Source: an uncultured archaeon
GTDB taxonomy: Archaea > Asgardarchaeota > Thorarchaeia > Thorarchaeales > Thorarchaeaceae
Direction: 5' to 3'
Assembly (NCBI GenBank): GCA_964473825.1
Contig: CAYYQL010000001.1
Location: 1 to 64,000, forward strand
DNA length: 64,000 nt
The notes under the pieces are model-generated. The model had not been told where the DNA came from and did not search any database. It saw only the letters and a list, made by a program, of their open reading frames with translations. Below, in pieces: positions 13,562 through 58,743 of the stretch. The position numbers were made by a program, and so were the translations under genes. The first letter of the stretch is position 1. Every line of letters starts with the position of its first letter.

Positions 13562-14511
13562 AGATTGGAACTATTGCTAGCCACAGTGCCCTTAACATTC
13601 TCTCTGGAGCAAGGGCCGAAGGTTTCCAGACAGCTCTCTACTGCCACTCAGATAGAGAAGAATTCTACAGCACGTTCGGGCTGTCAGATTCTATTATCAG
13701 AGTGTCCGCGTTCGATGAGATTCTTGATATGGACCTATCCGACACCATAATGATACCTCATGGTTCCTTTGTTGCCTATATTGGAGCCGACCGGATCATC
13801 AAGTCTAATCTACGACTGTTTGGCAGTAAGGAGTTGCTGCGGTGGGAAGAAGATAGAAAGCTAAAATCGGAGTTGATGAGGGCGGCTGGACTTCTTGTTC
13901 CCAGAGAATTCCCAACCATCGATGAGGTCGACTGTCCGGTCATAGTCAAATCCCATGGAGCGGCAGGAGGCGAGGGATACTTCATTGCTGAGAACAAGGA
14001 TGAGGCTCGTGCCAAGATGAACGCTGATACTCCGGGGGCTATGCAGGAGTACATTGTCGGCACGAAGGTCTTCGTCACATACTTTAACTCGGTGGCGAGA
14101 GAACGAATGGAGGTCTTTGGCGCCGACATCCGATATGAAACAGACGCAGATGCAAATCTCAGATTCGATGAACGACCCTCGTTTGTCGTGATTGGCAATC
14201 TGCCAATGGTGCTGAGAGAATCCACGCTTGTAAGATACTATGAGATGGGAAAGAACTTTGCCAGAGCGTTTCGGAAGCTTACAGGAAAGAGTCTGGTCGG
14301 ACCTTTTTGTCTCGAAACCATAATTGACCGGAACCAGCAGATCTACACCTTCGAGTTTAGTGGTCGTATAGTTGCAGGTACGAACATATGGATTCCATAC
14401 TCCCCCTACAGTTATCTCATGTTCTCCGAGCCCATGTGGATGGGACGAAGGATAGCTCGCGAAATCAAAGAACTAGAAGCAATGAATAGGCTTGAAGAGG
14501 TGGTCGAATGA
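13558..14511 (+). CDS. purP: PurP (formate:AICAR ligase, ATP-grasp)
   Basis: IASHSAL, IPHGSFVAY, GAAGGEGYF, GNLPMVLRES, GPFCLE, RIVAGTN. Confidence 0.85.
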   Translation: MKIGTIASHSALNILSGARAEGFQTALYCHSDREEFYSTFGLSDSIIRVSAFDEILDMDLSDTIMIPHGSFVAYIGADRIIKSNLRLFGSKELLRWEEDRKLKSELMRAAGLLVPREFPTIDEVDCPVIVKSHGAAGGEGYFIAENKDEARAKMNADTPGAMQEYIVGTKVFVTYFNSVARERMEVFGADIRYETDADANLRFDERPSFVVIGNLPMVLRESTLVRYYEMGKNFARAFRKLTGKSLVGPFCLETIIDRNQQIYTFEFSGRIVAGTNIWIPYSPYSYLMFSEPMWMGRRIAREIKELEAMNRLEEVVE

Positions 14512-42144: not shown

Positions 42145-42317
42145 GTGACTTTTCTTATAGACCCGCCCTTGCTGGTCACGTTCGGTTTCATCTCCTATGC
42201 GATTGGTGCTAGGCTACAGGATTGCACAGATCTTCCCATAGGTAAAATCCTGGCACTGTTCAGCACAGTCACAATAATCTTCACAAGCACTTCTCTGTAT
42301 CTGAACCTCTGGTACAT
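42145..42317 (+). pseudogene. 5' half of host membrane-protein gene interrupted by the integrated element
   Basis: ...SLYLNLWY ends in the att core; joins in frame to 58552-58743. Confidence 0.85.
42308..42317 (+). repeat. attL core TCTGGTACAT
   Basis: Identical to 58544-58553. Confidence 0.9.
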
Positions 42318-42377
42318 AGCAGACAATTCCCTCTCAATATGTAACGGATAATGCCCTTTAGAGATATCATTGCGATA

Positions 42378-42416
42378 TTTTGTGTAGATTCTACCCCCAC
42401 CCCCGTGATATATATC
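42378..42416. repeat. 39-bp sequence, inverted copy of 57056-57094
   Basis: TTTTGTGTAGATTCTACCCCCACCCCCGTGATATATATC versus reverse complement of 57056-57094: 34/39 ungapped identity. Confidence 0.85.
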
Positions 42417-42583
42417 TCACTGAGCTCTCCGGATACCTGGTCCCTCAACTCGTTGGTAAAAGCAGAGAGCATGTCTGAGATGTTCTTGAGGAGTGCTCGG
42501 CGAGGACTCCTATAGGGAGTGGTTCAGTCCAGAACGTGAGAGTCGCCCATGTCAGACTCTTCTGACTTGGAGGATGCCTTGAG

Positions 42584-42742
42584 ATGACTGATACGCGCAA
42601 CAAAATCGATATCACGGAGGAACTGAAGAACGCAGTTCTCGAACTGGTTGGCAGTTTTCTTCGTGAGGCCCGTTCCATGTGCTCTAGCGACGAGGAGTTC
42701 TATCGAGTGATCGACTGGCTGATCTCGCGCGATAAGAAGTGA
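42584..42742 (+). CDS. Small helical protein (52 aa), similar to 55229-55366
   Basis: MTDTRNKIDITEELKNAVLELVGSFLREARSMCSSDEEFYRVIDWLISRDKK; GGAGG upstream; stop codon abuts a repeat core. Confidence 0.6.
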   Translation: MTDTRNKIDITEELKNAVLELVGSFLREARSMCSSDEEFYRVIDWLISRDKK

Positions 42743-43228
42743 CTCGTTGGTAAGAAGAGAGGTCTCCTTGTCTGATGTTGCTGGGTAACTAGCGGCCAAC
42801 AGCTCGAGGGCTAGTTGCAGGGTAACGACTCGAGAATGCATCCCTCCGAGTTGGCGCCCGCCAACTCTCTGAGTCTTCTCTCTACGAGACTAAATAGTAC
42901 CGAGGACCTAGACCACTTGGACCACCTAGACCGGAGAGTACTCATGCTCAAGGAGATCTCATCTGAGACTGCCAGTTACCAACGAGTGAGAAGTCCGCCG
43001 TTTCTGAGCAGATAGGTATAGCTGAACCCATTTCACGGGGATAAAAATGCATGGGCCTCTCATTGGTAAGAATGCCCTTGAGAGCGTCTCTGAGACTCGG
43101 CCAATCATCAAGAGTCCTGTAGTCTGGTTCCTCACCCGGTAGCTGAGTCGTCTTCTGTGGTGCCGAGAGCGTGATTTGACCTCCTTAATAGTCCTGTAGA
43201 ATCACCTTTTGATAGGACTGTGCTGATT

Positions 43229-43510
43229 ATGACAGACAACGATGAGAGCCCGCTCCTGGTCAGGATCCCTGGACGAGATGAGGACCGGTCCGCCGCGAAG
43301 CATCCCCGGCCCCGATGTGGGATCTGTGGACGTCCAACAGTGGTCGCCACCATAGACCGGGGCAAGACCGAGAAGAAGGGGAAGAGGCCAGTGGGCCGAC
43401 CCAGGAAGGGCGCAAGATACACTCGCTACCGAAAGATCGGGAGGTACTGCGCCTATTGCGAGATCTTCTACTATCCCAACGGCACCCCTGACTACAGGTT
43501 GAGAGGCTAG
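43229..43510 (+). CDS. Small Zn-finger protein with AT-hook-like motif
   Basis: CGIC ... RPVGRPRKG ... CAYC. Confidence 0.6.
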   Translation: MTDNDESPLLVRIPGRDEDRSAAKHPRPRCGICGRPTVVATIDRGKTEKKGKRPVGRPRKGARYTRYRKIGRYCAYCEIFYYPNGTPDYRLRG

Positions 43511-43556
43511 AGAAGAATAGCTTCTCCAAGTTCACGGGGCACGGTCTCCTGTCCTG

Positions 43557-44153
43557 GTGAACCTTGGTCTCCCTCGAGCATCGAGGCCCACACGTATGGA
43601 TCAACACTCGTTGGTAACTGCTGAGCAGCTGAGGAAGTTGGCGCCCGCCAACTCGTTGGTAACTGTAGAGAACATATCCATCGTCCTGCCTTACTCATAC
43701 ACTATAGCTGAAGAGCAAGAAGACGGGCGACTTTTCACTCACCCTCTGATAACAGCCTCGAAACGGCCTCTCGCGCTTGTCTACGATTCGTCTGGGCAGA
43801 CTTGGTCCAGAGAAGAATTTGCCTTCCATACGATCTCTCCGCTGAAGATTCGGCATCGGAGGGTTGTGCGAGCTCCCCGAGGTTCCCAGAAGAAGGTCTC
43901 AGAACTCGTTGGTAACTGGACGTCAGGTGTCCTTCTCCCTGTAGGTCGCAATGAGATCCTCGAGTCGCTTTCTGATTGCCTCTTTGACGAACTCAGCAAA
44001 GGACGTGTAGCCGAGGCCGATCTCTTCATTCTTCTTCTCAACAAGATCCCTCAAGGACTCGGGAATGCGTACCGTGATGTATTCGTCAGACATGATTCAT
44101 CCGAGACCACCGCGAGAGATAATCCCTTCCTATCAATATTGAATCACCTATGA
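43557..44153 (+). CDS. Hypothetical protein (contains three repeat copies; 5' end doubtful)
   Basis: 198-aa ORF; N-terminus is made of repeat DNA. Confidence 0.35.
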   Translation: MNLGLPRASRPTRMDQHSLVTAEQLRKLAPANSLVTVENISIVLPYSYTIAEEQEDGRLFTHPLITASKRPLALVYDSSGQTWSREEFAFHTISPLKIRHRRVVRAPRGSQKKVSELVGNWTSGVLLPVGRNEILESLSDCLFDELSKGRVAEADLFILLLNKIPQGLGNAYRDVFVRHDSSETTARDNPFLSILNHL

Positions 44154-44170
44154 CGCAAAGGCTTAAGTAT
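44152..44170 (+). promoter_or_regulatory. Putative BRE/TATA promoter of the RHH-TFB operon
   Basis: GACGCAAAGG-CTTAAGTA about 25-30 bp upstream of ATG 44187/44193. Confidence 0.45.
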
Positions 44171-44192
44171 CACGGATGAATCATAGATGGCT

Positions 44193-44351
44193 ATGACTGA
44201 ATACAAGGGCGTCAAGATCCCGGCTGAACTGGCTGAGATCATTGACGTTAAACTGGTCAAGGAATCCGGCTACACTTCTCGAGCAGACTACATCAAGGAG
44301 TGCATCCGCAACGATCTCAGAAAGCGTGGGCTCCTGGGAGGGTCGGAGTGA
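44193..44351 (+). CDS. Ribbon-helix-helix (CopG-like) regulator, 52 aa
   Basis: MTEYKGVKIPAELAEIID...GYTSRADYIKECIRNDL; missed by the ORF track. Confidence 0.8.
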   Translation: MTEYKGVKIPAELAEIIDVKLVKESGYTSRADYIKECIRNDLRKRGLLGGSE

Positions 44352-44635
44352 TGCGTAGGGTCGACACCGACTACTTCTCCGTCGAGTACCCCGAGGACGT
44401 GACCTGCAGGCCCTTCGCGGTGCAGGAACCTCCGCTCCTCATGATGGTCTTTCGCAGAAGGGACGGACAGGAGATACACTTCGAGACCAAGCCCGGGGCC
44501 AGGGCCAAGACTATTCTCTTCGACAAGGACATCCTCATCATTGTTGTACGTCGCGACGCAGATACCCCCGATCTTGGCGACGGAGAGCAGGTCCCTGATA
44601 TCATCTCGAGAAGACTCTCAGGGGAGGGCAACTGA
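44351..44635 (+). CDS. Hypothetical protein
   Basis: TGATG coupling to upstream and downstream genes. Confidence 0.65.
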   Translation: MRRVDTDYFSVEYPEDVTCRPFAVQEPPLLMMVFRRRDGQEIHFETKPGARAKTILFDKDILIIVVRRDADTPDLGDGEQVPDIISRRLSGEGN

Positions 44636-44988
44636 TGGACTGCTATGAGTTTTCCTCGATTTCTCGGGTATCAGACACGACCGGCTTCCATCCGATCAAG
44701 AGCGGAAGGGACTATGCCTTCGAGCCAGACAGGGAGTTCGTGACCTTCTCCCAGGAGATCAACCTCGGTAACACTCCCCTGGAGAACTGCGCTGCACTCT
44801 TGGTGAGGACTCGGAGCCCTGCCGCTGATGTCGCGAGAAGCATCAAGAAGACTGAGACCGACAGGGAGCATGCCTGGGCCGATACCTCATTCTCGAGTGC
44901 TGTGGGCCTCATCCACGTGGTCTCCGACGTGGAGGTCTCACTCTCAGTGGTCCGACCCGACCTGCTCCTGGTCTTCCTGCAGAAGTGA
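44635..44988 (+). CDS. Hypothetical protein
   Basis: TGATG translational coupling, GGGAG upstream. Confidence 0.6.
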   Translation: MDCYEFSSISRVSDTTGFHPIKSGRDYAFEPDREFVTFSQEINLGNTPLENCAALLVRTRSPAADVARSIKKTETDREHAWADTSFSSAVGLIHVVSDVEVSLSVVRPDLLLVFLQK

Positions 44989-44997
44989 TCTAGGAGG

Positions 44998-45129
44998 ATG
45001 ATGAGTCTGCCAGATCCAACAAAGCAAGAGGTCCTTGCGTGGTATCGAAAGGTCGCTCGAGAAGAAGTCAAGAAGGTCCTCGGGGAGATCAGTCCCAAGC
45101 AGCGGAGAACCCTCCAGGAGGGGATGTAG
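44998..45129 (+). CDS. Small hypothetical protein (43 aa)
   Basis: MMSLPDPTKQEVLAWYRKVAREEVKKVLGEISPKQRRTLQEGM after AGGAGG. Confidence 0.55.
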   Translation: MMSLPDPTKQEVLAWYRKVAREEVKKVLGEISPKQRRTLQEGM

Positions 45130-45130
45130 T

Positions 45131-45472
45131 GTGGAGCGGCCTGATTCTATCTCTATTGCGAAGGGCCATGTTGCTCCTGCGAATAGCCTACAGAACAAGC
45201 AGCCACTCTGTCAATCCTGTGCCAAGCGACACTTCTGCAACCAGTTCGTCTGGCAAGTTGCTCCCATGACTACCTGTGAGATGCGGATAGCCTATAGCCT
45301 GTCCTCAGAGTTATGGCTTCTATGGCTCTACCATCTTGCTCCACTCTGCCATGAATGCGCTATCTACCTGGACTGCGAGGAAGAATGCTGCGAAGAGTAC
45401 CACGATCCCCCGGCGGTCTGGTATCTCATGCTTGCCTATTCGTGGCTTGAGAAGTACAAGGAGGAGAACTAG
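45131..45472 (+). CDS. Cys-rich protein with two PLCxxCA repeats
   Basis: PLCQSCAKRHFC and PLCHECAIYLDC; GTG start likely. Confidence 0.55.
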   Translation: MERPDSISIAKGHVAPANSLQNKQPLCQSCAKRHFCNQFVWQVAPMTTCEMRIAYSLSSELWLLWLYHLAPLCHECAIYLDCEEECCEEYHDPPAVWYLMLAYSWLEKYKEEN

Positions 45473-46444
45473 ATGCAGGTACTGGTCAGGAATCAACATC
45501 TCTGCACCGAGTGTGGAGCTCCCCTCATCTCCCACAATGGGGCTCTCGTCTGCAGAGAGTGTGGTCTCGAGCACAGACGCGAACTGGTCCCAGGGACATT
45601 CAAGATCGGGGAGTCCATTGACTACGGCGAGGACTACTCCGCAAGCAGGTCGACGTCCGTCAACGATGCAGATGTCCTCGTAGATGGTGATGGTCTCGGG
45701 ACTTATATCTCCAGCTCGGTGAGAATGAGCTCCAGTTACCAACGAGCCAAGATCTACCGACTGCAGCAGCTCAATCGTCGCATCGCCTTGAAGCACCTGG
45801 AGCAAGAACGCAAGGTCCTTGTCTGGCTGGGTCGCTACGCCTCTGAGCTCGGACTCTCAGGCCAGATAGTGAGAAGAGCCAAGCATCTCTGCAAGCAGGC
45901 AATGAGACGCCTTCAGCAGGTCGGCGACGAGTTCAACAACTGCAGTCTGAACCGGGTCATCCTGGGCTGCTCTTCAACGATCTTCGCAGCTCGAGAGGCA
46001 AGAGTCCCGATGGATCCCCAGGAGATCATTGACGTCTGGGCCCAGCGTCATCGGGTCACTCTCTGCAACGTCAGGAAGGGCCTGTACTGGATCCAGAAAC
46101 AGACAGGGATTCCGTTCTCCTTCTCGAGGCCGATCGATTATGTTGACAAGACGGTCTCCGAGCTCAGGGCCTGCAATGAACTGATGGAACGAATCAGTGA
46201 CAGGGGACTTGATCTAGAGCGACTGATGCAGAGGCTGCGGCAAGATCTCAGCATGATTCTCAGTGCTACTCCCTCGGTTGTCTATCAGGGACGAAAGCCC
46301 TCAACCCTGACCCCAGCCCTTGCGTACGTTCTGCTGAAACGGCAGTGTGTCGGGGTGAGCCAGAAGGTGGTCGCTAGGGCCTGCGGAATCAGCTACCTGA
46401 CAATGCGGTACGGCTCTAGCCTTTGGAGGGAATACCTGAGATGA
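45473..46444 (+). CDS. Divergent transcription initiation factor B (TFB/TFIIB) homolog
   Basis: N-terminal Zn ribbon CTECG...LVCRECGL, DGLGTYI linker, cyclin folds (ASELGL, IFAAREARVP, RPIDYV, QGRKPS, SQKVVARACGIS). Confidence 0.85.
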   Translation: MQVLVRNQHLCTECGAPLISHNGALVCRECGLEHRRELVPGTFKIGESIDYGEDYSASRSTSVNDADVLVDGDGLGTYISSSVRMSSSYQRAKIYRLQQLNRRIALKHLEQERKVLVWLGRYASELGLSGQIVRRAKHLCKQAMRRLQQVGDEFNNCSLNRVILGCSSTIFAAREARVPMDPQEIIDVWAQRHRVTLCNVRKGLYWIQKQTGIPFSFSRPIDYVDKTVSELRACNELMERISDRGLDLERLMQRLRQDLSMILSATPSVVYQGRKPSTLTPALAYVLLKRQCVGVSQKVVARACGISYLTMRYGSSLWREYLR

Positions 46445-46641
46445 CGATCAGGATCATCGGTCGGGAGCAGGTGGTCTGTGACTGCACCGGCAACACCTCT
46501 GAGACCTACCAGGACAGGCTTCTGGTGGGCATATCCCACAGCAGGGACAGCATTATCGTCCGGGTGTTCTGTCCCGAGTGCGACGCGACCCGTGATTTCA
46601 CCATCAGGAGTGGTCTGCACCTGGACTGGATGTCTCACTAG
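46441..46641 (+). CDS. Small Zn-binding protein
   Basis: CDC ... CPEC; ATGA overlap with TFB; stop TAG is part of a repeat copy. Confidence 0.6.
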   Translation: MTIRIIGREQVVCDCTGNTSETYQDRLLVGISHSRDSIIVRVFCPECDATRDFTIRSGLHLDWMSH

Positions 46642-46925
46642 TTACCAACGAGTTGAACCGACCAGGAGAGATTTCCTCCCTGGCGGGAATTCGCTCTATC
46701 GAGCGAGGTGATGAATGGGAACTGACGGACCTGGAGTACACTGTCATGCTCTCGGCCTCTCTCAGCTAGAACAGGCGGTTTCAGATCGCCCTCTCCTATT
46801 TCTTGAGATGGTGCTTAGCCAGAGGTCACGTCGACCAGCTTGACAAGTTGGCGCGCGCCAACTCGTTGGTAACTTGAAACAGCTGCAGAAGTTAGCGCGC
46901 CAAGTGTCAGAGGATAAAAGGGGGG

Positions 46926-47381
46926 CTAATCAGGTATTCTACTGGACGAAGACACATCAGATACATTCGTTGATGAAACAACATAGACGGGCTCTTGGAA
47001 CTGGTTAATGCGAGATGATCTGACAACCCTTGATACGATTAGTCTGACCTTCAGAATGTCTCCATTCTCCAGTCGATGTGTATTCCACACTTCCTTAACT
47101 GGCTCGAAATCAACCATTGTCCGAGTTTCTTCAATTCCTTCCTCTTCAGACAAGGCAAGTGATTTTGCTTCTTTGGATACTCTCACACTGGTGACATTGG
47201 TAGCAGCATAGGCAATAAGAGGTCCGCCCGATATCTTGAGCTGGTGGGTGTCGAAGACTTTGAATACGATGGGTCTGATTCTCATCCTCGAACCATCTAC
47301 TAAATCATATTCATTCCATCCTTCATGGATGGGTTCGAAATCAAGTTCTGTAGCTTCTTCGCTGAGTTTCCTTATCTCCAA
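46926..47381 (-). CDS. Hypothetical protein with internally duplicated ~70-aa domain
   Basis: DFEPIHEGWNEYDLVDGSRMRIRPIV / DFEPVKEVWNTHRLENGDILKVRLIV. Confidence 0.75.
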   Translation of the reverse strand: MEIRKLSEEATELDFEPIHEGWNEYDLVDGSRMRIRPIVFKVFDTHQLKISGGPLIAYAATNVTSVRVSKEAKSLALSEEEGIEETRTMVDFEPVKEVWNTHRLENGDILKVRLIVSRVVRSSRINQFQEPVYVVSSTNVSDVSSSSRIPD

Positions 47382-47383
47382 TG

Positions 47384-47947
47384 CTATCCTCTCATCTTGT
47401 TTGCCTTCACATCATAAATCTTGATTGGATGTGTGTCTGACCAGAATCCCTTGTCAAATGTGGCCAGATAGTCACATCCGAAGTAGCATGCAAGCGAAAT
47501 ATGGAATGCATCGTTTCCACCAATCCCCACCAGCTTCTGGTTCGAGCCTCTCATGGCGACACGGTAGTTGGAATTCCTTAGCTGGTCCAGACCAAGCTCT
47601 AGCACTGCCCATACAAGGGGAGCATTTCTTCCTAGAATTGACAGCTCAAACTGAGTACCTGAAACAAACTCAAGATTCTTTAGAGCCATGATCTTTCCGA
47701 CTCCTTGTACTACATCCTGCTCAATGACTCCATAGTTCGTGTAGTTCTTGCGGACACAAGCTTTCCGAATGACGCTAATCATCTCCATCAATGCCCAAGT
47801 TGAAACAATCCCTGTTGCTGTTCCTTGTGCTATCTGCTGAAAGAAAGCCTTAGTGGCTCGTCTATCTCTACTGCGTCCGTAGCCGCTGAGATAGTTTAGA
47901 AGGACCGATGTATCGATGTAACAGAAACCGGCGGGAATCGAAGACAT
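47384..47947 (-). CDS. PIN-domain (VapC-like) nuclease/toxin
   Basis: YIDTSVL, ME, NDAFHISLA, LATFDKGF acidic PIN residues. Confidence 0.85.
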   Translation of the reverse strand: MSSIPAGFCYIDTSVLLNYLSGYGRSRDRRATKAFFQQIAQGTATGIVSTWALMEMISVIRKACVRKNYTNYGVIEQDVVQGVGKIMALKNLEFVSGTQFELSILGRNAPLVWAVLELGLDQLRNSNYRVAMRGSNQKLVGIGGNDAFHISLACYFGCDYLATFDKGFWSDTHPIKIYDVKANKMRG

Positions 47948-47960
47948 CCTTTCTCCCTCT

Positions 47961-48359
47961 CTACTTGAGTCTGACCTCTCTCAGCAGGTCCTCGACAGTC
48001 TTATCTTCCTCTCCATCGAATAGATGGGCAAGTGAGCCAAACCCATCTTCAATTGATTCAAAGCATGGATGAGGTAAGGGTCTATCCCCGGCTATAATCC
48101 TCCAGATGCGTTGTCTGCTGTGCTCGGCAACACGCCGTCCCTCTACGGACGTAGTTAGTGAATATGTAGGAACTATGGACACCTGTAGTTGAAGCATGGA
48201 GAAATGTTGTCTTGAATCGGTAGAGCACTCGACAGGATTCTGGGTTTCTTCAGGAGCAACTCGGACTAGAACGCAGTCCATCAGGTTCTCCGACGTTTCC
48301 GGGGATATCTGAAGAATGGATTCATTTTGTTCTTTTGAAACCAGCACTGGACCCACCAC
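47961..48359 (-). CDS. Putative antitoxin (VapB-like C-terminus)
   Basis: Upstream of PIN gene; C-terminal GSL...TVEDLLREVR typical of VapB tails. Confidence 0.5.
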   Translation of the reverse strand: MVGPVLVSKEQNESILQISPETSENLMDCVLVRVAPEETQNPVECSTDSRQHFSMLQLQVSIVPTYSLTTSVEGRRVAEHSRQRIWRIIAGDRPLPHPCFESIEDGFGSLAHLFDGEEDKTVEDLLREVRLK

Positions 48360-48560
48360 CAGGAGTACCTCTCCGAATTCTAGTATGCCTTCCTCAGATA
48401 AAAGGGTTTTTCGTCAGGGCAATCAGGTCAACCCTATTAGAATCCACAGTGTATCCAGTACCCTATCCACCTTGACCAAGAACTAGAGGGCACTCCTGCT
48501 TGAATGGTCACAGGACTATTCAACTCGTTGGTAACTACGACTTGAGGTTGTTAAAAGGCA

Positions 48561-49289
48561 TTGGCACTACTAGAGACCATGAGTCTAACAGGTGGGATCT
48601 ATCGAACCCAGGATGAGAATGCGAATCTCCTGACGGTGATCTACATCGTCGCTGGTGCATTGACTGCGACCTTCTCGGCTCGAGCAGTCATGAATGACCC
48701 TACTCAGCTCAGCCGATGGCTACTCTTCTTGGTGTGGCTGGCATTGGGCATCAGTATCGCTGCACTCATCGGCGTGCAGGCTCGACCCGAGCGGGTCATC
48801 GGAGAGGGCTTTGCTCTCTCGATTGGTATCATAGGCTACTCGGTCATCATGGTGATCCAGTACTGCATGGTGCTGGTCTCGGCCTTCATGCCCTTCTCCC
48901 AGATGAACTTCTACTTCGCGATTTTGGCCCCGATATCGGAGACCTTCTTTTTCACGGTCACGCTGTACAGGATCATCCGCGTGGCCCTTCCTGCCTTCAC
49001 CTGGCTCTTCTCGAACCTGATCTCGTCGATTACCTTCGCGCTGTATCACTACTTCGTCTATGGTCTGGACCCGATTTCGCTCATCGTCCTCTTCTTGGGC
49101 AACACCGTCCTCAACTACACCTTTGAACTGACGAAGAACCCTGCAGCACCCATCACGGCACATCTCCTCGTGAATCTGACGCCCTACTGGTGGGACGTCG
49201 CGGGTCTCTTGGTTGCCAACTGGTGGATGATTGCACTCCCGATCTTCCTCACTGTGGTGTGCATCATCTGCGGCGGGACCCGGCGCTAG
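48561..49289 (+). CDS. CPBP/type II CAAX-like intramembrane protease
   Basis: Multi-TM; APISETFF (EE motif degenerate), FALYH, AHLLVN. Confidence 0.75.
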   Translation: MALLETMSLTGGIYRTQDENANLLTVIYIVAGALTATFSARAVMNDPTQLSRWLLFLVWLALGISIAALIGVQARPERVIGEGFALSIGIIGYSVIMVIQYCMVLVSAFMPFSQMNFYFAILAPISETFFFTVTLYRIIRVALPAFTWLFSNLISSITFALYHYFVYGLDPISLIVLFLGNTVLNYTFELTKNPAAPITAHLLVNLTPYWWDVAGLLVANWWMIALPIFLTVVCIICGGTRR

Positions 49290-49637
49290 TTACCAACGAG
49301 TGGACTGAGACCGTCCTCTCATCTCCTTGCTTCATGTTGCTCAGTAACTACTGGCCAGTTACCAACGAGTCAGAAGAAGCGATTCTCGACCTGTGACACT
49401 GTCTTGTTGCTCCCCTCAGCATTCAACAGTGACGAAGTTATTAAGAATCGGTCATATCTTGATAGTGTGACCTAAGGTGCTTCTTGACCCAGAGAGCGGG
49501 AGGGACCGCTGCTATCTGTTCTCTATGTTTGACACCACTGAGAGTGGTGGTAGTCTAGACACTTCAGGGAGTCGGTGTCAACCACTGAGATTTTCGCGAA
49601 AAACGAGAATCCGTCTACACCCTTCTCTTCATTGGCG

Positions 49638-49773
49638 CGGAGGAGATGGGGCAGGGGATCTCTGGGGACAGGTGGGAGGGCTGGAGGGGAACGGGAGCGC
49701 CAGGGACCAGGAGCGGAGGGGCGAGAGGGCGGTGGTGGGGGCGCCATGAAATTTTTGCGGAGGAGGGGGAGTG
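49638..49773 (+). other. Strongly G-skewed non-coding tract with G-quadruplex potential
   Basis: More than ten runs of GGG to GGGGG in ~135 bp. Confidence 0.7.
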
Positions 49774-49814
49774 TAGACGATTAACTATGAAGAATCTCAA
49801 GGAGACGATAGACG

Positions 49815-50102
49815 GTGACCACTGAGAAACCTAACTTCGTGGAGAGGAATCTGGATGAGGCGACGGCTGAGGTTTTTGCCCTGCTTGCAGAGCAGCGACG
49901 TCGCACAGGGACCTTCCTGATATCGCAGAAGGCTCTTCGGAAACAGATTCAAGACCGATTCGGCGGGAGTCCCACGCAGGCCGGCTACCTTGCCAGGGGT
50001 GTGATGAAACGCTTGCAGGAGCGGGGAATCGCGGAGATCTGGGACCAAGAGAAGATGTCCAGCTTCAAGAAGAAGATCTACAAGGTCCATGCGGAGGTCT
50101 GA
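49815..50102 (+). CDS. Winged-helix-like DNA-binding protein, paralog 1
   Basis: ARGVMKRLQERGIAEIW...KKIYKV; similar to next gene. Confidence 0.7.
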   Translation: MTTEKPNFVERNLDEATAEVFALLAEQRRRTGTFLISQKALRKQIQDRFGGSPTQAGYLARGVMKRLQERGIAEIWDQEKMSSFKKKIYKVHAEV

Positions 50103-50104
50103 CT

Positions 50105-50374
50105 GTGACAAGATATGTCGAGCAGAATCTCGAGGAGGCCTACCAGGAGGTTCTCAGCATCCTGGAGGAGCAACGACGCCGCATGGGAACATTCGTTATC
50201 TCGCTGAAACGCATCAGGACCTATGTATCCGAGAGGGTCGGGGGACACAAGAGCCAGGTGGGACGTCTGAGCCGGGCAGTGATGGAACGGCTCGAGCAGG
50301 AGGGCGTTGTCCAGATCTGGGATGAGTGGGAGATGAGGAAGTACAATCGCCGGGTCTACCAGGTCCGTGCCTGA
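50105..50374 (+). CDS. Winged-helix-like DNA-binding protein, paralog 2
   Basis: SRAVMERLEQEGVVQIW...RRVYQV. Confidence 0.7.
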   Translation: MTRYVEQNLEEAYQEVLSILEEQRRRMGTFVISLKRIRTYVSERVGGHKSQVGRLSRAVMERLEQEGVVQIWDEWEMRKYNRRVYQVRA

Positions 50375-50908
50375 GACCCTGAAGGTAAGTTTATTAAGTC
50401 TAGACGGAATCGTAATAACATGCCTTGCGAAATCCTCCCCGGACTTCTTGAAGCAAGGTATTCCTCTCGTGATTTCTGGTCCTGATCTCATCATCAGGAC
50501 CTCTTTTCCTTGTTCATCAAAAGAGCATTATTTACCAACGACGGCTTTTTATATTTCTAGACAGAAGGACTGAGTGTCTTTTCTCTCGGGGAGGGACGAA
50601 AGGACTCGCGCCTCGGCGCGGATTTGCATAGGAAATCATGAGATGAAAAGAATGAAAACTGCCCTACGTGAAGTTGGGACTGGGCGTGGAAGAGCCCTAG
50701 CCTCTCAAAAGCAAGGCTCTCGTCACGACTGCTGCAGTCCCAGAAAGAACAAAGCTGACTCCCCTTATGAAGGCAGCTGTAATACCAGTGGCGTCAGCCA
50801 CTGCGGCAAGATACTGTTTCTCAAGTACTCCAGGGTCTGTTTCGAGAGGCTTTATGGTCCTCTGCATAGTTTCCGGAGTCCGAGCGACATCATCCAGGGG
50901 GTGCATTC

Positions 50909-51631
50909 TTGAACTCCAAGAATGAGTCCACATATATCGTTGAGGCTCAGCCTGTCGAGATTCCGACTCTCTGGATCGACAAGACCAAACACGCTCTCAA
51001 GGAGCTCGAGCGCTTCAAGCGAGAGATAGCGACTCCTGATGACTATCAGACCATCAGGGGCAAGCCGTGGCCCACGAAATCATTCTCTCGAAAGATGGGC
51101 CTGTCGGCCAATCTCCGCGATGAGATTGTAGAGAAAGAGAGAATTGACCGGCAGGACGAGAGCTTTGTGTGGTTTCTAACCGTGAGAGTGACTGCTCCGA
51201 ACGGCCGGTTCTGCACTGCTGTCGGTGCTTGCGACAGTAGGGAGCGGAACTTCAACCACGTAGAGCATGATGTCTTTGCCACTGCCCACACGAGGGCAAA
51301 GAACAGGGCGATTCTGGATATGGTCGGCGGGGGAATGATCTCCGCTGAAGAGATTGAGTCGATTCCTAGTGAAGAGTCGGCCTCGCATGAATCTTCAGCA
51401 ATAGGTAACGAGTCATTATCCGGGGAGAAAATCATCGACACGGTGCAGGGACACGGCCTTGAGACCGATGGAATGGAGGTATCCACGGAGAACGGCCAGC
51501 TCATCGTCCTGCTCAAGGGCTATGTTGGGCGTGACCTCTGGGACCGGTACGACGCAATCATGCGCCAGCTGGGCCTTGCCTATACCAAGCCAGAGGGCAA
51601 GGATAGGGGATTCTGGGGGGTGATTGCTTGA
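50909..51631 (+). CDS. Rad52/Sak-like single-strand annealing protein
   Basis: VRVTAPNGR..TAVGAC, ATAHTRAKNRAILDMVGGG.ISAEEI. Confidence 0.6.
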   Translation: MNSKNESTYIVEAQPVEIPTLWIDKTKHALKELERFKREIATPDDYQTIRGKPWPTKSFSRKMGLSANLRDEIVEKERIDRQDESFVWFLTVRVTAPNGRFCTAVGACDSRERNFNHVEHDVFATAHTRAKNRAILDMVGGGMISAEEIESIPSEESASHESSAIGNESLSGEKIIDTVQGHGLETDGMEVSTENGQLIVLLKGYVGRDLWDRYDAIMRQLGLAYTKPEGKDRGFWGVIA

Positions 51632-53826
51632 CCATCGAAGACCTCGGAGACAGCATCGAGCTAGACGCGAACAACCTCGCAGTGAGGATAGCCCTATCTG
51701 TCGAGCAAGACGGCGGGTTCCTCTTCCACGACGGAGGAGAGCCCTATGTCCACATGGCCGACAACGGTCGGTCTGAGATCACCCACCTTCGCAACGCGCG
51801 TTTCCGCAGTATGCTAACTCATAAGTCGATGAGATATGAGGGGCTACCCGCAGGGAAGGAAACCGTCGAGAACGCAATCCGAATCCTAGAGGCTGTCGCG
51901 CTGTTCAGTAGTCCAGAGATCCGGTTGCATAACCGGGTTGCCATGCAGGACGGGGGTATCTACTTCGACCTCTCAGACATGGGGGGCCGATGTGTACATA
52001 TCACGCCGGACGGCTGGGAGATTGAGAAGGCGCCTATCCTCTTCAGGCGATACAAGCACCAACGCCCGGCGGTCCTTCCAAGCAAGAGCGAGCGTCCCAT
52101 CAAGGAACGACTGGAGAGCTTCTTGGAGCTGGTCAACTATGACCGCGACACCGAGCTCTTGCACCTGGTTGAGCTGGTCTTCAGCTTTGTCCCTGACGTC
52201 CCGCATCCTATCCCGGTTGTGTACGGGCAACAGGGCTCTGCGAAGTCCTCATTCTTCAGAGTCTGGGGTCGCCTGGTTGACCCCTCAGACCTTGAGGATG
52301 CGGTGCTTCCGCGCAAGGAGGTCGAGATGATCCAGAAGCTGGAGCACCACTGGTTTCTTGCTTTTGATAACGTTTCTAAGCTGTGGGAGTGGCAATCTGA
52401 CGATCTGTGTCGCGCAGCCACCGGCACCGGGTTCTCAAAGCGCAAGCTCTACAGTGACGATGAGGATATCATCTATAAGTACAAGAGAGTCGTGGGACTC
52501 AATGGTATCAATGTCGCAGCCGAGAGACCGGACCTTCTGGACCGGTCGATACTGCATGAGTTCCCCGAGATACCCCTAGAGGACCGGATGGAAGAGCGCG
52601 AGATCTGGGAGAGGTTCGAACGGGCTGCACCTGATATCATGGGTGCAATCTTTGACGCACTCTCTGAGGCATTACGAATACTGCCTACTGTAAATCTTAC
52701 CGGCCTCTACCGAATGGCGGACTTCACACGGTGGGGTTGTGCCATAGCCGAGGCCATTGGCTACAGCCAACAGGACTTTCTGAATGAGTATTGCAACAAC
52801 ATCAACACGCAGAACACGGAGGCCTTGGAGAACAACCCGGTCGGTACTGCAGTACTGTCGTTCTGGAATAGCCTGGACCTGATTGACGAACGGTGGAGAA
52901 ATACCCCGACCCAGGCGTACCAGACCCTGACAAAACACGCCGAGGGACTCGATATCAAGGTGTCCGGGAAGGACTGGCCGAAGAGCCCCGCAGCCATGAG
53001 TCGGGAACTAAACCGCCTCAAGACGAACCTCAAGAAGGAGGGGATCCTGTTCGAACGGCCACGAGAGGGGAATGTCCGATACTGGCAACTGAGCCCCGTA
53101 GAAGGTTCCGAGTATGTCGTCACAGTCGTCATGTCGTCACAGAGCAGCGCAGAAGGCGAAATTCCGCCTTCTAACGATGACGATACTTGTGACGATATTA
53201 GCGATACCCGAGAATGTCGTCATAATGTCGTCACCGAGAACGGGCCCGAAACGGCCTCTCCTGATGATTGTGACGCTGTGACGACAATGACGATAAAGTC
53301 GGAAACACTTGGGGGCACCCCGGAAGAGCTCAGAGCCTTCGTGGGTAAGGACCAGTACTCAGTCAGGTTCCTGATAGGTCGCGGTTTCAGCCTTGGAACG
53401 ATGCAGGAGCTACACAGTCAGGGACGAGGAGAGATCGTCAGGGTCGGATCTGGTGAGATACACTTCAGACTGACAGAGAATGGCCGTCAACAGCCTTGTG
53501 AACCGGAGACGCGGTCGCGTCAACCACTACTGAATAGCGCCGGGAACCCAGATCATGACGGTCAAACGGCGGACGTGGACAACCCGGGGATCTCGAGCAC
53601 CACACCCAGACTCTTCGAGCAATTTCTCGACTGGCTCAAGGCTCACGGCCTCGATATGCGAGGTAAGGCGATCACGCGACAGGAGATAGAGGCCTTCTGG
53701 CATGGCCCAGATAAGCAGCTGCATGACTGGATGTTCAAGGCACTCGATGAAAACTACATTAGAGAAGTGGAACCCGGCGTCTATTGCTGGGACACCCGGG
53801 CAACGCGGGAGGGGGTGGTCTCCTGA
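51628..53826 (+). CDS. Putative replicative P-loop ATPase/helicase (SF3-like) with C-terminal wH domain
   Basis: Walker A GQQGSAKS, Walker B LAFDNVS, RKLYSD, LNGI, DLLDR, RMADF. Confidence 0.75.
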   Translation: MTIEDLGDSIELDANNLAVRIALSVEQDGGFLFHDGGEPYVHMADNGRSEITHLRNARFRSMLTHKSMRYEGLPAGKETVENAIRILEAVALFSSPEIRLHNRVAMQDGGIYFDLSDMGGRCVHITPDGWEIEKAPILFRRYKHQRPAVLPSKSERPIKERLESFLELVNYDRDTELLHLVELVFSFVPDVPHPIPVVYGQQGSAKSSFFRVWGRLVDPSDLEDAVLPRKEVEMIQKLEHHWFLAFDNVSKLWEWQSDDLCRAATGTGFSKRKLYSDDEDIIYKYKRVVGLNGINVAAERPDLLDRSILHEFPEIPLEDRMEEREIWERFERAAPDIMGAIFDALSEALRILPTVNLTGLYRMADFTRWGCAIAEAIGYSQQDFLNEYCNNINTQNTEALENNPVGTAVLSFWNSLDLIDERWRNTPTQAYQTLTKHAEGLDIKVSGKDWPKSPAAMSRELNRLKTNLKKEGILFERPREGNVRYWQLSPVEGSEYVVTVVMSSQSSAEGEIPPSNDDDTCDDISDTRECRHNVVTENGPETASPDDCDAVTTMTIKSETLGGTPEELRAFVGKDQYSVRFLIGRGFSLGTMQELHSQGRGEIVRVGSGEIHFRLTENGRQQPCEPETRSRQPLLNSAGNPDHDGQTADVDNPGISSTTPRLFEQFLDWLKAHGLDMRGKAITRQEIEAFWHGPDKQLHDWMFKALDENYIREVEPGVYCWDTRATREGVVS
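53115..53295. repeat. Iteron-like cluster TGTCGTCA / TGACGA(C/T)A inside the ATPase gene
   Basis: + copies at 53115, 53124 (1 mismatch), 53132, 53215, 53226; - copies at 53178, 53190, 53279, 53288, partial 53271. Confidence 0.75.
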
Positions 53827-55619: not shown

Positions 55620-57329
55620 ATGCCGGAGATAACGGACAAGCGAATACTGAGTATTCCTGCAGATGTACGAAAATTCGTAGATGTGGAAAGGTGCCAGAGT
55701 ATTCCTTCTTCTGTCTACCCTGTCTCCGAGGACTTGCCGGAAATCTCTCTGGATGAGGTCGCCGACGTACTTAGCTCCACAATTGCCAAGGACTGGACCA
55801 CAAAACTCGTCACCTTTATGGTCCTGTTGCTGACCTACACACACGAGGATCAGACAGGAATTCTCTATCAGGCTGGGTCCAGCACCGGCAAGTCACATAA
55901 TGCACTTGAAGTCACAAAGGGATACTTCCCGGCAGAGGATGTTATTAAGAAGGACTATGCCTCTCCAACTGCGTTCTTTCACAAGCAGACTGAGCTATGC
56001 GTTCGCAGCCGCGACGACTGTTTCTATCCTGTCCTCTCGAAGCGAGAGTATGTCAATCGCCAGATGCAAGAGTGGGATAAGGCAAATCCCAAACCAGAAG
56101 AACGGGGAGAGAAGACAGAGCACAGAAACCATCGGAATGCTGCGAAGGGGAGGTTCGCCGACGAGTGGGATAGCCTAGAGAAAGTGTGGTTCTGGGATTT
56201 ATCACGTAGAATTCTTCTCTTCAAAGATATGCCTCATGACCTGGTTTTGGCGAATCTGAGACCTTTGATTTCGAAAGACGAGCAATACTTTGAAGCAGAT
56301 ATCACGGACAAGAGTACATCTGGGCAACATGCCACTAAGACCATCGTTCTGAAGGGTTTCTCTACCTTCCTCTTCTGTTCTGCGTCATACTCTCAGGATG
56401 AGCAGGAACGCACACGATTCTTTCTACTTAGTCCCGAGGTCCAGAGTGAGAAAATCAAGGCGGGAGTCAGAATGGCAATTCAGCGTTCCTGCAATCGCCC
56501 TAGATTCGAGGGGAATATTAGAAAAGATGAGAGGAGGGCAGCACTTCGAGAGCGTGTTCTCAGCATTCGCGCAGCATCTATCACAGACGTAATCATTCCT
56601 GATGACCTCACGCAAGAGATTGAGAACAGAATCTTCGACGAACATGATAGCCTGCAACCACGTCTCATGCGAGATGCCCCCAGGATGATTGCCCTTATGA
56701 AAGCTCACGCACTTCTGAACTTCTCGAACCGGCAACAGAGAAACGGCATCATCGTAGCGACGGAGCGCGATGTCCAGGTTGGCTACGAGCTCTATAGACC
56801 CATTGCTGAAGCAAACGAGAGAGGAGTACCGCCTCAGGTCTATGACTTCTACGAGAAGCGACTAGAACCTTCGATTAGGGCCAAAGCAGAAGAGGACGGT
56901 ATCCAGGGAATCTCCAGAAAGGACTTTGTCCGTCTCTGGTTTGATGAATTCAATGAGCAGATTGGCTACAAACGCATGGTAGAGATTCTCCATCTCATGG
57001 ACAACGCCGGACTTGCATCTGAGAGAGAGAATCCAGCAGACAAGCGCGAGAAGCTGATATATATCCCTGGGGGTGGGGTAGAATCTGCACAAAAAGAAGC
57101 AATGCCTTCAGCGCCTTTTGACAGGTTTCTCTCATGGCTGATCACTCATGGTCTGGATATGCGAGGTAAGACGGTCTCGAGGGCTGAGATCGCCTCAGCA
57201 TGGGAAGAGTCTGATGAGAAGCTGAATGACTACCTCTTCAAGGCCCTGGACGAGGAATACCTGAGAGAGACCGAACCAGGCGTCTATCACTGGGGGTCGA
57301 GAGCCACGAAAGAGGGAATCGTGGACTGA
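55620..57329 (+). CDS. MCM-like AAA+ helicase with C-terminal wH domain
   Basis: Walker A AGSSTGKS, ERTRF arginine finger, RDAPRMIALMKAHALL...ATERDV sensor-2/lid region. Confidence 0.7.
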   Translation: MPEITDKRILSIPADVRKFVDVERCQSIPSSVYPVSEDLPEISLDEVADVLSSTIAKDWTTKLVTFMVLLLTYTHEDQTGILYQAGSSTGKSHNALEVTKGYFPAEDVIKKDYASPTAFFHKQTELCVRSRDDCFYPVLSKREYVNRQMQEWDKANPKPEERGEKTEHRNHRNAAKGRFADEWDSLEKVWFWDLSRRILLFKDMPHDLVLANLRPLISKDEQYFEADITDKSTSGQHATKTIVLKGFSTFLFCSASYSQDEQERTRFFLLSPEVQSEKIKAGVRMAIQRSCNRPRFEGNIRKDERRAALRERVLSIRAASITDVIIPDDLTQEIENRIFDEHDSLQPRLMRDAPRMIALMKAHALLNFSNRQQRNGIIVATERDVQVGYELYRPIAEANERGVPPQVYDFYEKRLEPSIRAKAEEDGIQGISRKDFVRLWFDEFNEQIGYKRMVEILHLMDNAGLASERENPADKREKLIYIPGGGVESAQKEAMPSAPFDRFLSWLITHGLDMRGKTVSRAEIASAWEESDEKLNDYLFKALDEEYLRETEPGVYHWGSRATKEGIVD

Positions 57330-57331
57330 GA

Positions 57332-58474
57332 TCAGTCAGACTTCTCTCGTTGCTCCTTCGCGTACGCCTTGGCAAAGGCCTCAGCAAAGCTCTGCATGAG
57401 CTCGGGGTCTTCCTTGATCTGTGAAACGATCATCTGACCCGCGGAGTCAGTCGCGAGAGCCTTGTCCTGCAGCGTGTTGCAGTTGGGACAGTACTGCGAG
57501 TCTGCGCCGATTATGAAACCACAGTTCCAGCACTTGACCCTCTTCTTGACCTCGCGTTCCTGGACAATCCCAAGCGCCTCAAGCTCCTCCCTCTCATAGT
57601 CCTGGTCGAAGTACTGATGGTAGTGCTGCTCGAACACTTTTGAGTCCCGGGTATGCCCAAGCCTTCTCCTGATTGCGGAGTCCGTCAGAAGATCCTCATT
57701 CTTCCAGTGGGTTGAGGCCGACTTTCTGAACAGCGTTGCGTAGAGCTCCATGCCAAGGACTCTGCTTGCCCGCCGGTAGGCATCCGAGATATCGTGGGGT
57801 TGGATCCTGTTCCCCTTGCCATTGACAAAGAGTGGGCCGGTTCCCTTATGCGTTCGATAGTAGAACTGGAACCATTGAAGCCCTAGCTCGGTGATCATCC
57901 GCAGGGCTCGAGTCTTGGTCTTGGAGTCCTGGATGTGAAGGACATAGCCATGCTGGTCCCTGATCACGTCGTCATAGTCCAGGCTACAGAGCTCGGACGG
58001 TCTCATGCCGGTGTCCCAGAGGACTGCAGTTATCGCCTTCCAGACATGGGTGTAGTGATAGTCAATCACTCGTTCCACGTCCTCAGGAGTCAGGAGGTCC
58101 TTTGCCGTCTTGACTCGCCTGGCAGTCCTGGACCGGGACTTGAGCATGTCTTTGTAGGGCTCTTTGGATGCATCTATCCCGTGGAACCCAAGCCAGTATC
58201 GCAGGCCTTGGGCTGCAGTGTTGAAAGTGTTGTTGGAGACCCTACCCCGCTTGAGCTGATTGCCTCCCTCTGAGAATGTCCTTGAGACCTTGTAGTTGAG
58301 TCGTCTGGTCAGGACTCCCCTGATATCGTCGGGAGAGGGTCTCTTCAGGGGTAGATCGAAGTAGGTCAGTAGAGCCCTGATCGCATCAGTGTTGGTCTTG
58401 ATGGATCTCTCTCGAGCCTGACCACCGACCTCAGCCCGGAGGTAGTCTCCGAATCTGTCCAGTGTTGCCTGCAT
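57332..58474 (-). CDS. Tyrosine recombinase/integrase with C-terminal Zn ribbon
   Basis: TGMRPSEL, SKT, LFRKSAST, RLGH, HY catalytic residues; CWNC...CPNC. Confidence 0.93.
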   Translation of the reverse strand: MQATLDRFGDYLRAEVGGQARERSIKTNTDAIRALLTYFDLPLKRPSPDDIRGVLTRRLNYKVSRTFSEGGNQLKRGRVSNNTFNTAAQGLRYWLGFHGIDASKEPYKDMLKSRSRTARRVKTAKDLLTPEDVERVIDYHYTHVWKAITAVLWDTGMRPSELCSLDYDDVIRDQHGYVLHIQDSKTKTRALRMITELGLQWFQFYYRTHKGTGPLFVNGKGNRIQPHDISDAYRRASRVLGMELYATLFRKSASTHWKNEDLLTDSAIRRRLGHTRDSKVFEQHYHQYFDQDYEREELEALGIVQEREVKKRVKCWNCGFIIGADSQYCPNCNTLQDKALATDSAGQMIVSQIKEDPELMQSFAEAFAKAYAKEQREKSD

Positions 58475-58543: not shown

Positions 58544-58553
58544 TCTGGTACAT
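58544..58553 (+). repeat. attR core TCTGGTACAT
   Basis: Identical to 42308-42317; 70 bp upstream of the integrase start. Confidence 0.9.
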
Positions 58554-58743
58554 GGATTGGTTCTGGATACCCTTCTATCCAGCCGTGACATCGGGGAGGG
58601 ATCTCATGATTAACTCTGGCATCTTTTCTCTTGAAGCTGTGAACACTCAAGGCATAATTGACGTCTTGGCCATGTTACAGATTGCCCTCTATCCTCTCTG
58701 GGTCATCTTAGGCACGCAGGCCTATCGGCGGCATAATCGTTAG
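58552..58743 (+). pseudogene. 3' half of the interrupted host membrane-protein gene
   Basis: MDWFWIPF... continues ...LNLWY in frame. Confidence 0.85.

Follow-up and report, generated by a model that had tools for sequence, protein, structure and literature searches.

Operators for the C1 repressor of phage P1 are asymmetric 17-bp sites, tied to promoters and scattered over a temperate genome in both orientations. Cluster A mycobacteriophages such as L5 and Bxb1 carry stoperators, which are 13-bp asymmetric sites dispersed mostly in short intergenic spaces and biased relative to transcription (PMC9283540, PMC6550527), and in plasmid RK2 the KorB/OB regulon comprises about 12 dispersed sites, of which some are at promoters and others remote (PMC11790492). 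Among archaea, the closest comparison is with the promoter-linked early-gene sequence of rudiviruses, where for SIRV2 Aca8 a cis-sequence is repeated over accessory genes and a small winged-helix-turn-helix (wHTH) protein is the proposed repressor (PMC11065993). Here we describe a comparable array in a stretch of 64,000 nucleotides (the window) from an uncultured archaeon of the Thorarchaeia (contig CAYYQL010000001.1), which harbours an integrated element of 16,236 bp. Copies of a short asymmetric sequence, motif A (CTCGTTGGTAA), are dispersed over the left half of this element. The array is real and conserved, and it is probably regulatory.

Dispersed operator arrays are an already known kind of regulatory arrangement and, from the comparison of site architectures, motif A most likely works as stoperators or KorB operators do and belongs to neither family. 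Like stoperators, it has an asymmetric consensus of ~13 bp, many copies (14) and an intergenic position near gene ends. Stoperators, however, are spread over the whole element whereas A is restricted to one arm, and A also differs in its archaeal host and polymerase, in its partial orientation bias, in having no related repressor, in being common to unrelated islands and in being fused to other palindromes. The OB sites of RK2 are palindromic and bound by a ParB-type clamp, whereas A is asymmetric, lacking the 16-bp palindrome of parS and KorB sites, and no ParB (PF02195) was found in the host genome (G000, 96% complete) or in genomes G341, G351 and G384, where divergent forms are possible. 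The P1 operators share with A the asymmetry, the scatter and the presence in both orientations; a C1 counterpart was not detected here. The early-gene sequences of rudiviruses include the B recognition element (BRE) and TATA and lie upstream of genes, whereas A comes without a TATA box and is often at 3' ends. Regulation of Asgard mobile elements is essentially undescribed, and the literature on these elements (PMC11529989, PMC13700489, bioRxiv 10.64898/2026.02.13.705702) mentions attachment and methylation motifs, not a dispersed site array.

A motif confined to mobile DNA

Between 42449 and 50542 we counted 12 exact copies of the 11-mer and two copies with one mismatch, over the same range and in the same strand order (+ + - + + + - - + + - -) as had been noted in an earlier, sequence-only reading of this DNA. 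That reading saw no copies in host DNA or in the right-hand replication half of the element, and this holds genome-wide: all 12 exact 11-mers of the 3.27-Mb genome lie inside this stretch, in the left half of the element, and the other 3.25 Mb contain none (0.88 expected genome-wide under a 5th-order Markov model). Dinucleotide shuffles gave a mean of 0.63 matches and a maximum of 4, never reaching 14, and a position weight matrix found 14 sites of at least 15 bits in the element, the corresponding figure for an equal length of host DNA being 0.04. Conservation is sharp over a core of ~14 bp (ACTCGTTGGTAACT) with free flanks; the CAA at the start of the 16-mer quoted earlier occurs in only five copies (42446, 43649, 46640, 46859 and 48521) and the full 16-mer is matched by four. 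The perfect 15-16-bp inverted and direct pairs that the sequence-only reading had singled out do exist, but because the consensus is itself 14 bp long they are not a separate signal: 28 of the 78 copy pairs share at least 15 bp, and 13 share at least 16 bp. The copies are irregularly spaced, as had been noted, and have no Rfam or tRNA match. Two kinds of repeat array were considered and rejected: CRISPR, as there are no regularly spaced direct repeats of 25-40 bp, and origin boxes or iterons, as the A copies are dispersed and irregular and the host origin recognition box (ORB) upstream of orc1 reads GTTCCAGTGGAAA.

A scan of related Asgard elements, which the sequence-only reading had proposed, showed motif A at nine further loci, distributed over six other Thorarchaeia assemblies and usually with other conserved palindromes stacked next to it. 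This family-wide motif and the stacked set of cis-motifs had been overlooked in the first reading. The element family was reached via homologues of the TFB-like protein, the integrase and the ribbon-helix-helix (RHH) protein RhhB, and 21 loci selected in this way (162 kb) contain 5 exact 10-mers of A where simple arithmetic predicts ~0.3; the loci of genomes G341 and G351 were selected by the motif itself, in pattern searches. Locus L023 is a complete 10.8-kb element at another host site, the left end of which is identical to the 22 bp surrounding the first A copy of the window and then continues into palindrome B; it also has a degenerate A upstream of an operon homologous to the right-arm operon. 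Three A copies are present in L026 and a cluster in L055, and in both loci A lies just past the rhhA stop codon in the same orientation as in the window. The G341 islands carry 8 copies on four contigs, G351 has 4 before a recombinase gene, and the 2.5-kb integrase element of L113 has one, together with B. No array of the 14-mer was found in 399 other Asgard genomes, and scans of IMG/VR for A, B, inverted pairs and the RHH gene returned isolated chance matches or nothing.

The palindromic members of this set are the partners B-E only, A itself being asymmetric. Palindrome B (AGTTGGCG-NN-CGCCAACT, 18 bp) has three copies in the element, at 42849..42866, 43636..43653 and 46846..46863, the last two overlapping motif A, and was found in 10 of the 86 genomes of the family and, outside it, in a single further Asgard genome, while controls gave no match. 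Palindromes C, D, E and F also recur across loci; E, of the CACCACTG-N-AGTGGTG type, is found at 49533..49549 and again in L026 and L040. In the other loci 6 of 10 A copies have another conserved palindrome no more than 70 nt away (0.5 expected). This recurrence and stacking indicate that the mobile DNA of Thorarchaeia has a cis-vocabulary in which A is one word, and that A has been amplified in this element; motifs A and B could be used as markers of mobile DNA in Thorarchaeia genomes. Palindrome C (TTCCACGTGGAA) differs from the host ORB by one base and is similar to bacterial parS; it marks further islands of the host genome (C25:801, C25:12428, C65:8815 and C1:184787) and is also present in L023 (7071-7470). 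Four TTCG-N6-CGAA palindromes were seen at cargo-gene boundaries of L054, another member of the family (592, 1413, 1839 and 1875), and in L114 (986-5046) palindrome B adjoins genes that, by eye, resemble a type IV CRISPR-Cas locus with a PAPS-reductase-like gene.

Placement of the copies and a putative operator array

Thirteen of the 14 copies are intergenic in an arm that is itself 70% coding (P<5e-5). Four of the copies directly adjoin a stop codon (P=0.007, conditional on an intergenic position). The arm is organized around a divergent RHH switch (44092..44184), with inverted ATGAnTCAT boxes that are probable RHH operators and distinct from motif A; it separates the leftward gene rhhA (43923..44093, minus strand; a weak RHH_1 match, conserved in ~14 related loci) from rhhB (44187..44351, plus strand), the first gene of a rightward operon. 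To the left of the switch, six of seven copies are on the plus strand: 42449..42459, 132 bp inside attL; 42743..42753, abutting the stop codon of a 52-aa open reading frame (ORF, 42584-42742); the one-mismatch copy at 43059..43069; 43607..43617; 43652..43662, fused to palindrome B; and 43905..43915, 8 nt past the rhhA stop. The seventh, at 42976..42986, is intergenic and on the minus strand. To the right, five of seven are on the minus strand: 45736..45746, in frame inside the TFB-like gene; 46642..46652, abutting the stop codon of the rightward operon's final gene; 49290..49300, abutting the stop of a gene for a CPBP protease; 49359..49369; and the one-mismatch copy at 50532..50542, which precedes the right-arm operon's TATA box by 5 nt. 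The two plus-strand copies on this side are 46862..46872, fused to palindrome B and 3' of the PIN operon, and 48524..48534, beside a TATA-like box between the divergent PIN operon and CPBP gene. Relative to the switch, 11 of the 14 copies therefore have the same polarity (P=0.03, with the pivot chosen afterwards). Transcription units as read from the sequence have a copy of matching polarity at or after the 3' end in six of seven cases (rhhA, the rightward operon, the PIN operon, CPBP, the wHTH pair and the 52-aa ORF), and in the excised circle the 1.6 kb that lead from rhhA to the integrase gene would contain six plus-strand copies.

We infer from this distribution, with a probability of about 0.5, that motif A is a dispersed array of asymmetric operators, each copy a putative 13-14-bp protein site on double-stranded DNA, that silences or insulates the accessory arm. 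A sequence-specific protein would bind A, which would be one of several cis-motifs common to Thorarchaeia integrative elements and islands, multiplied here so that 14 copies mark the ends and the promoters of accessory-arm transcription units. The bound protein would most likely repress promoters and block transcripts that read through from the divergent RHH switch, among them those that in the excised circle would run leftward across attP toward the integrase gene. The binder could be a tandem pair of wHTH proteins encoded by the element or, where relatives lack the pair, a factor acting in trans.

The tandem wHTH pair (49815..50374, plus strand; paralogues of 95 and 89 aa, 47% identical) is the leading candidate binder. 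Structure models of these proteins have a predicted local distance difference test score (pLDDT) of 89 and a winged-helix topology; a Foldseek search gave no hit with E<=0.001, and the VIA matches were generic winged helices only. Homologues were detected by local BLAST in L026, L061 and L148 (a word-based search gave none); the one in L026 ends 25 nt before an A copy and belongs to an operon that has A at either end, and a strong genome match was seen only in G351, which is one of two genomes where A is clustered. Because other relatives carry A and lack the pair, a factor supplied in trans would be needed for at least some elements. The binding-site alternative of the sequence-only reading thus fits the evidence, while the wHTH and RHH proteins that it named as binders could not be confirmed. 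The RHH pair was rejected in this role: it has its own conserved ATGAnTCAT boxes, and the relatives with the closest RHH proteins, the fragments L056 and L058, are without A. A host regulon was likewise considered on account of a 15/16 near-match (C1:263517) overlapping the ribosome-binding region of the SAM synthetase gene, and was discarded because this match is not conserved beyond the genus. The structure model of a 241-aa protein, with a pLDDT of 48, was unusable.

Several observations weigh against this reading of the array. The orientation of A is mixed, with three exceptions in the window and mixed copies in relatives; TATA-like boxes are near few copies and absent from most; and the replication arm is without sites, none of the 14 copies lying to the right of 50542. 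Two relatives, L104 and L108, have inverted A dyads with the geometry of a recombination site. The pair co-occurs with A only partly: the wHTH homologues of G351, L148 and L061 have no exact A nearby, a search of the genomes that contain L023 and L113, both of which carry A, gave no homologue of the pair, and none of the candidate genes was found in the incomplete assembly of G341, with its 8 copies. Binding and roadblock function are testable in vitro without culture, since the site is defined (14 bp), the candidate proteins are few and the family of elements has its RHH switch conserved.

Alternative roles for motif A

The alternative that fares best, which we regard as possible and clearly less probable than an operator array, is that A is a non-regulatory loading or architectural site. 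It could be an accessory site (of the arm or directionality type) for integration and excision, or it could serve as a centromere, a packaging signal or a transfer signal that a helper element's protein recognizes. A and B are found within ~130-600 bp of the element end or the integrase gene in the window, L023, L113, L108, L038 and L059, and the 2.5-kb element of L113 carries both with little besides its integrase. Most copies in the window, on the other hand, are 1-8 kb from the att sites and track gene ends, and the integrases that A accompanies belong to two distant clades, both with relatives that are without A. This reading could find support in palindrome C, which resembles the parS site of P. 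aeruginosa and differs by one base from the host ORB, and in a site at position 57 of L026 that matches 14/16 to the parS of Burkholderia chrII (PMC7022226), but A is not palindromic and ParB was not detected in the four genomes mentioned above.

A broader proposal, which is speculative and in our view doubtful, would place these observations in a common frame. Thorarchaeia mobile elements would have a vocabulary of at least six conserved cis-motifs of 10-18 bp, absent from the host core genome, stacked at gene and module junctions and read by factors supplied in trans, and A would be its polar member: either the first stoperator-like roadblock for an archaeal (eukaryote-like) RNA polymerase or a lox-like arm for mobilisation of islands by a helper recombinase.

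Integron cassettes have one attC hairpin each, in a single orientation, next to the integrase gene. Motif A has mixed orientation and no hairpin partner, and the integrase gene is 6.8 kb from its last copy. The sequence-only reading had offered, as one of its two models, recombination sites of a cassette or shufflon-like system. In such a model A would be one arm of a site whose copies delimit invertible or exchangeable cassettes, and we consider this unlikely. The R64 shufflon, Acinetobacter pdif modules and loxP/FRT systems do likewise combine short repeated sites around genes with a tyrosine recombinase; they differ in having a conserved core, partner arms, alternation or a constant gene with alternative ends, none of which is seen here. 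The sfx site of Rci has a conserved 7-bp core and a 12-bp arm, the second arm being variable as it could be in A (PMC11852207), and pdif is a 28-bp two-arm site with a 6-bp spacer and alternating orientation (PMC13141974). In A only 14 bp are conserved, the window copies have no partner arm (2-6 of 13 matches) and the spacer side, where sfx and pdif need a shared core, is unconserved, so neither the sfx rule nor the pdif rule applies; nor does the strand order given above alternate.

The element's integrase, the only tyrosine recombinase found in the genome, uses att arms unlike A. One copy lies inside the conserved TFB-like gene (45473..46444, plus strand), the product of which is 28% identical to the host TFB and 54% to a full-length orthologue; that orthologue is colinear and without A, differing by five substitutions in place within the site and a 6-bp indel just upstream. 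Alternative C-termini do not follow the copies: in the TFB frame, 236 aa result from the native copy alone, and the other copies give 3-60 aa or run antisense over the Zn-finger gene. The low-GC PIN module does lie between direct copies of A, as exchangeable cargo might, but in the two cases where homologues of the module were compared (L179 and L180) there is no A at the ends. Only one CPBP homologue was found, too distant (27%) for its flanks to be compared. In favour of recombination, homology with other elements begins or ends near A at 42446 and 46658. As with an architectural role, the occurrence of A beside integrases of two distant clades with A-free relatives is unfavourable. Contigs at ~55x are unbroken over all copies, with no joints at A in three runs; this is weak evidence because rare variants are lost from contigs and because the source may itself be two of these three runs, and it excludes only frequent rearrangements. 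A joint at 42873>49356 in run X2 was tried as a deletion at A and rejected, as it has 7 foreign letters, no shared bases and a depth of 2.8, and was assigned to another element.

Another observation in favour of recombination comes from two relatives. The inverted 13-8-13 arms of loxP/FRT are not present in the window, but L104 and L108 carry an inverted A dyad of identical 13-8-13 geometry, and one of the two is 95 bp upstream of a tyrosine recombinase gene; these are the only two such Thorarchaeota matches in GTDB, with the same gap in both. This loxP-like geometry keeps a recombination role open, and could equally represent two half-sites two helical turns apart. A homologue of the L108 recombinase was not found in the genome of the window. 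Four dyads outside the Thorarchaeota in GTDB are at chance level, one of them being a plain terminator hairpin.

A little less probable still is an action in RNA, as a signal for 3'-end processing, termination or RNA binding that is read one way after stop codons. It would account for the overlap with stop codons and the majority polarity with transcription, and B could form a hairpin. The copies at gene ends, however, occur in both orientations (42743 against 46642), one copy is in the middle of a gene, several are upstream of genes, as are the L104 and L108 dyads, and the copies show no U-tract and no Rfam match. Chance or an assembly artefact, which the choice of motif A after the fact might suggest, is already refuted by 14 observed copies against 0.63 in shuffles and by the presence of the motif in the contigs of three sequencing runs and in independent genomes.

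The integrated element and its relatives

The element is bounded by 10-bp attachment cores in direct repeat on the plus strand, attL at 42308..42317 and attR at 58544..58553, and joining these restores a 120-aa host ORF. The interrupted gene encodes a 120-aa membrane protein (42145-42317 and 58554-58743). An empty site was found in a contig of run X3, from a later sample, with the joint 42307>58544 and 10 shared letters. The left arm comprises the divergent RHH pair, the TFB-like gene (a weak TFIIB match), a low-GC PIN module of three cargo genes (46926..48359, minus strand; 46% GC) between two direct copies of A, a CPBP/Rce1-like membrane protease gene (48579..49289, plus strand) between inverted copies and the two paralogous winged-helix genes. 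The right arm has two replicase-like genes and the tyrosine integrase (57332..58474, minus strand), the only PF00589 gene found in the genome.

The two replicase-like genes have in common a 73-aa C-terminal domain (56%; 53605-53823 and 57108-57326), which is also present on the unrelated replicase of L023 and was not found in five motif-bearing genomes. At the left end of the element, next to motif A, 42368-42416 is an inverted, 82% identical copy of the helicase gene linker region 57056-57104, and L023 has a similar arrangement (5350-5380 and 14300-14390) with iteron-like repeats of its replicase. This inverted copy is a possible Rep-binding site or second origin.

Reads from the same mat samples reveal a second relative, ~90% identical (51616-53494, 46464-46529 and 46658-46717). 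Its loose end at 46658 corresponds to a point where the window has a stop codon with motif A; in the relative there is a stop codon too, but with 17 different bases. In L113 (7360-10100) the element is inside a radical-SAM gene, to which it seemingly supplies a replacement 5' end, and carries A, B and a decayed HNH-like ORF. The element family recruits basal transcription factors: TFB genes are carried by the window, L023 and L057, and a related element in L148 (1739-2200) has a gene for a TATA-binding protein (PF00352, E 3e-53). Two further repeat arrays were seen in the family. The end of the related element in L040 (3717-3900) has three repeats of 16-31 nt with a 73-nt period and unique spacers, resembling a mini-CRISPR, and downstream of rhhA in L061 (2050-2310) four repeats of up to 40 nt, with a period of 75-77 nt and each followed by a different palindrome, form a possible RNA array.

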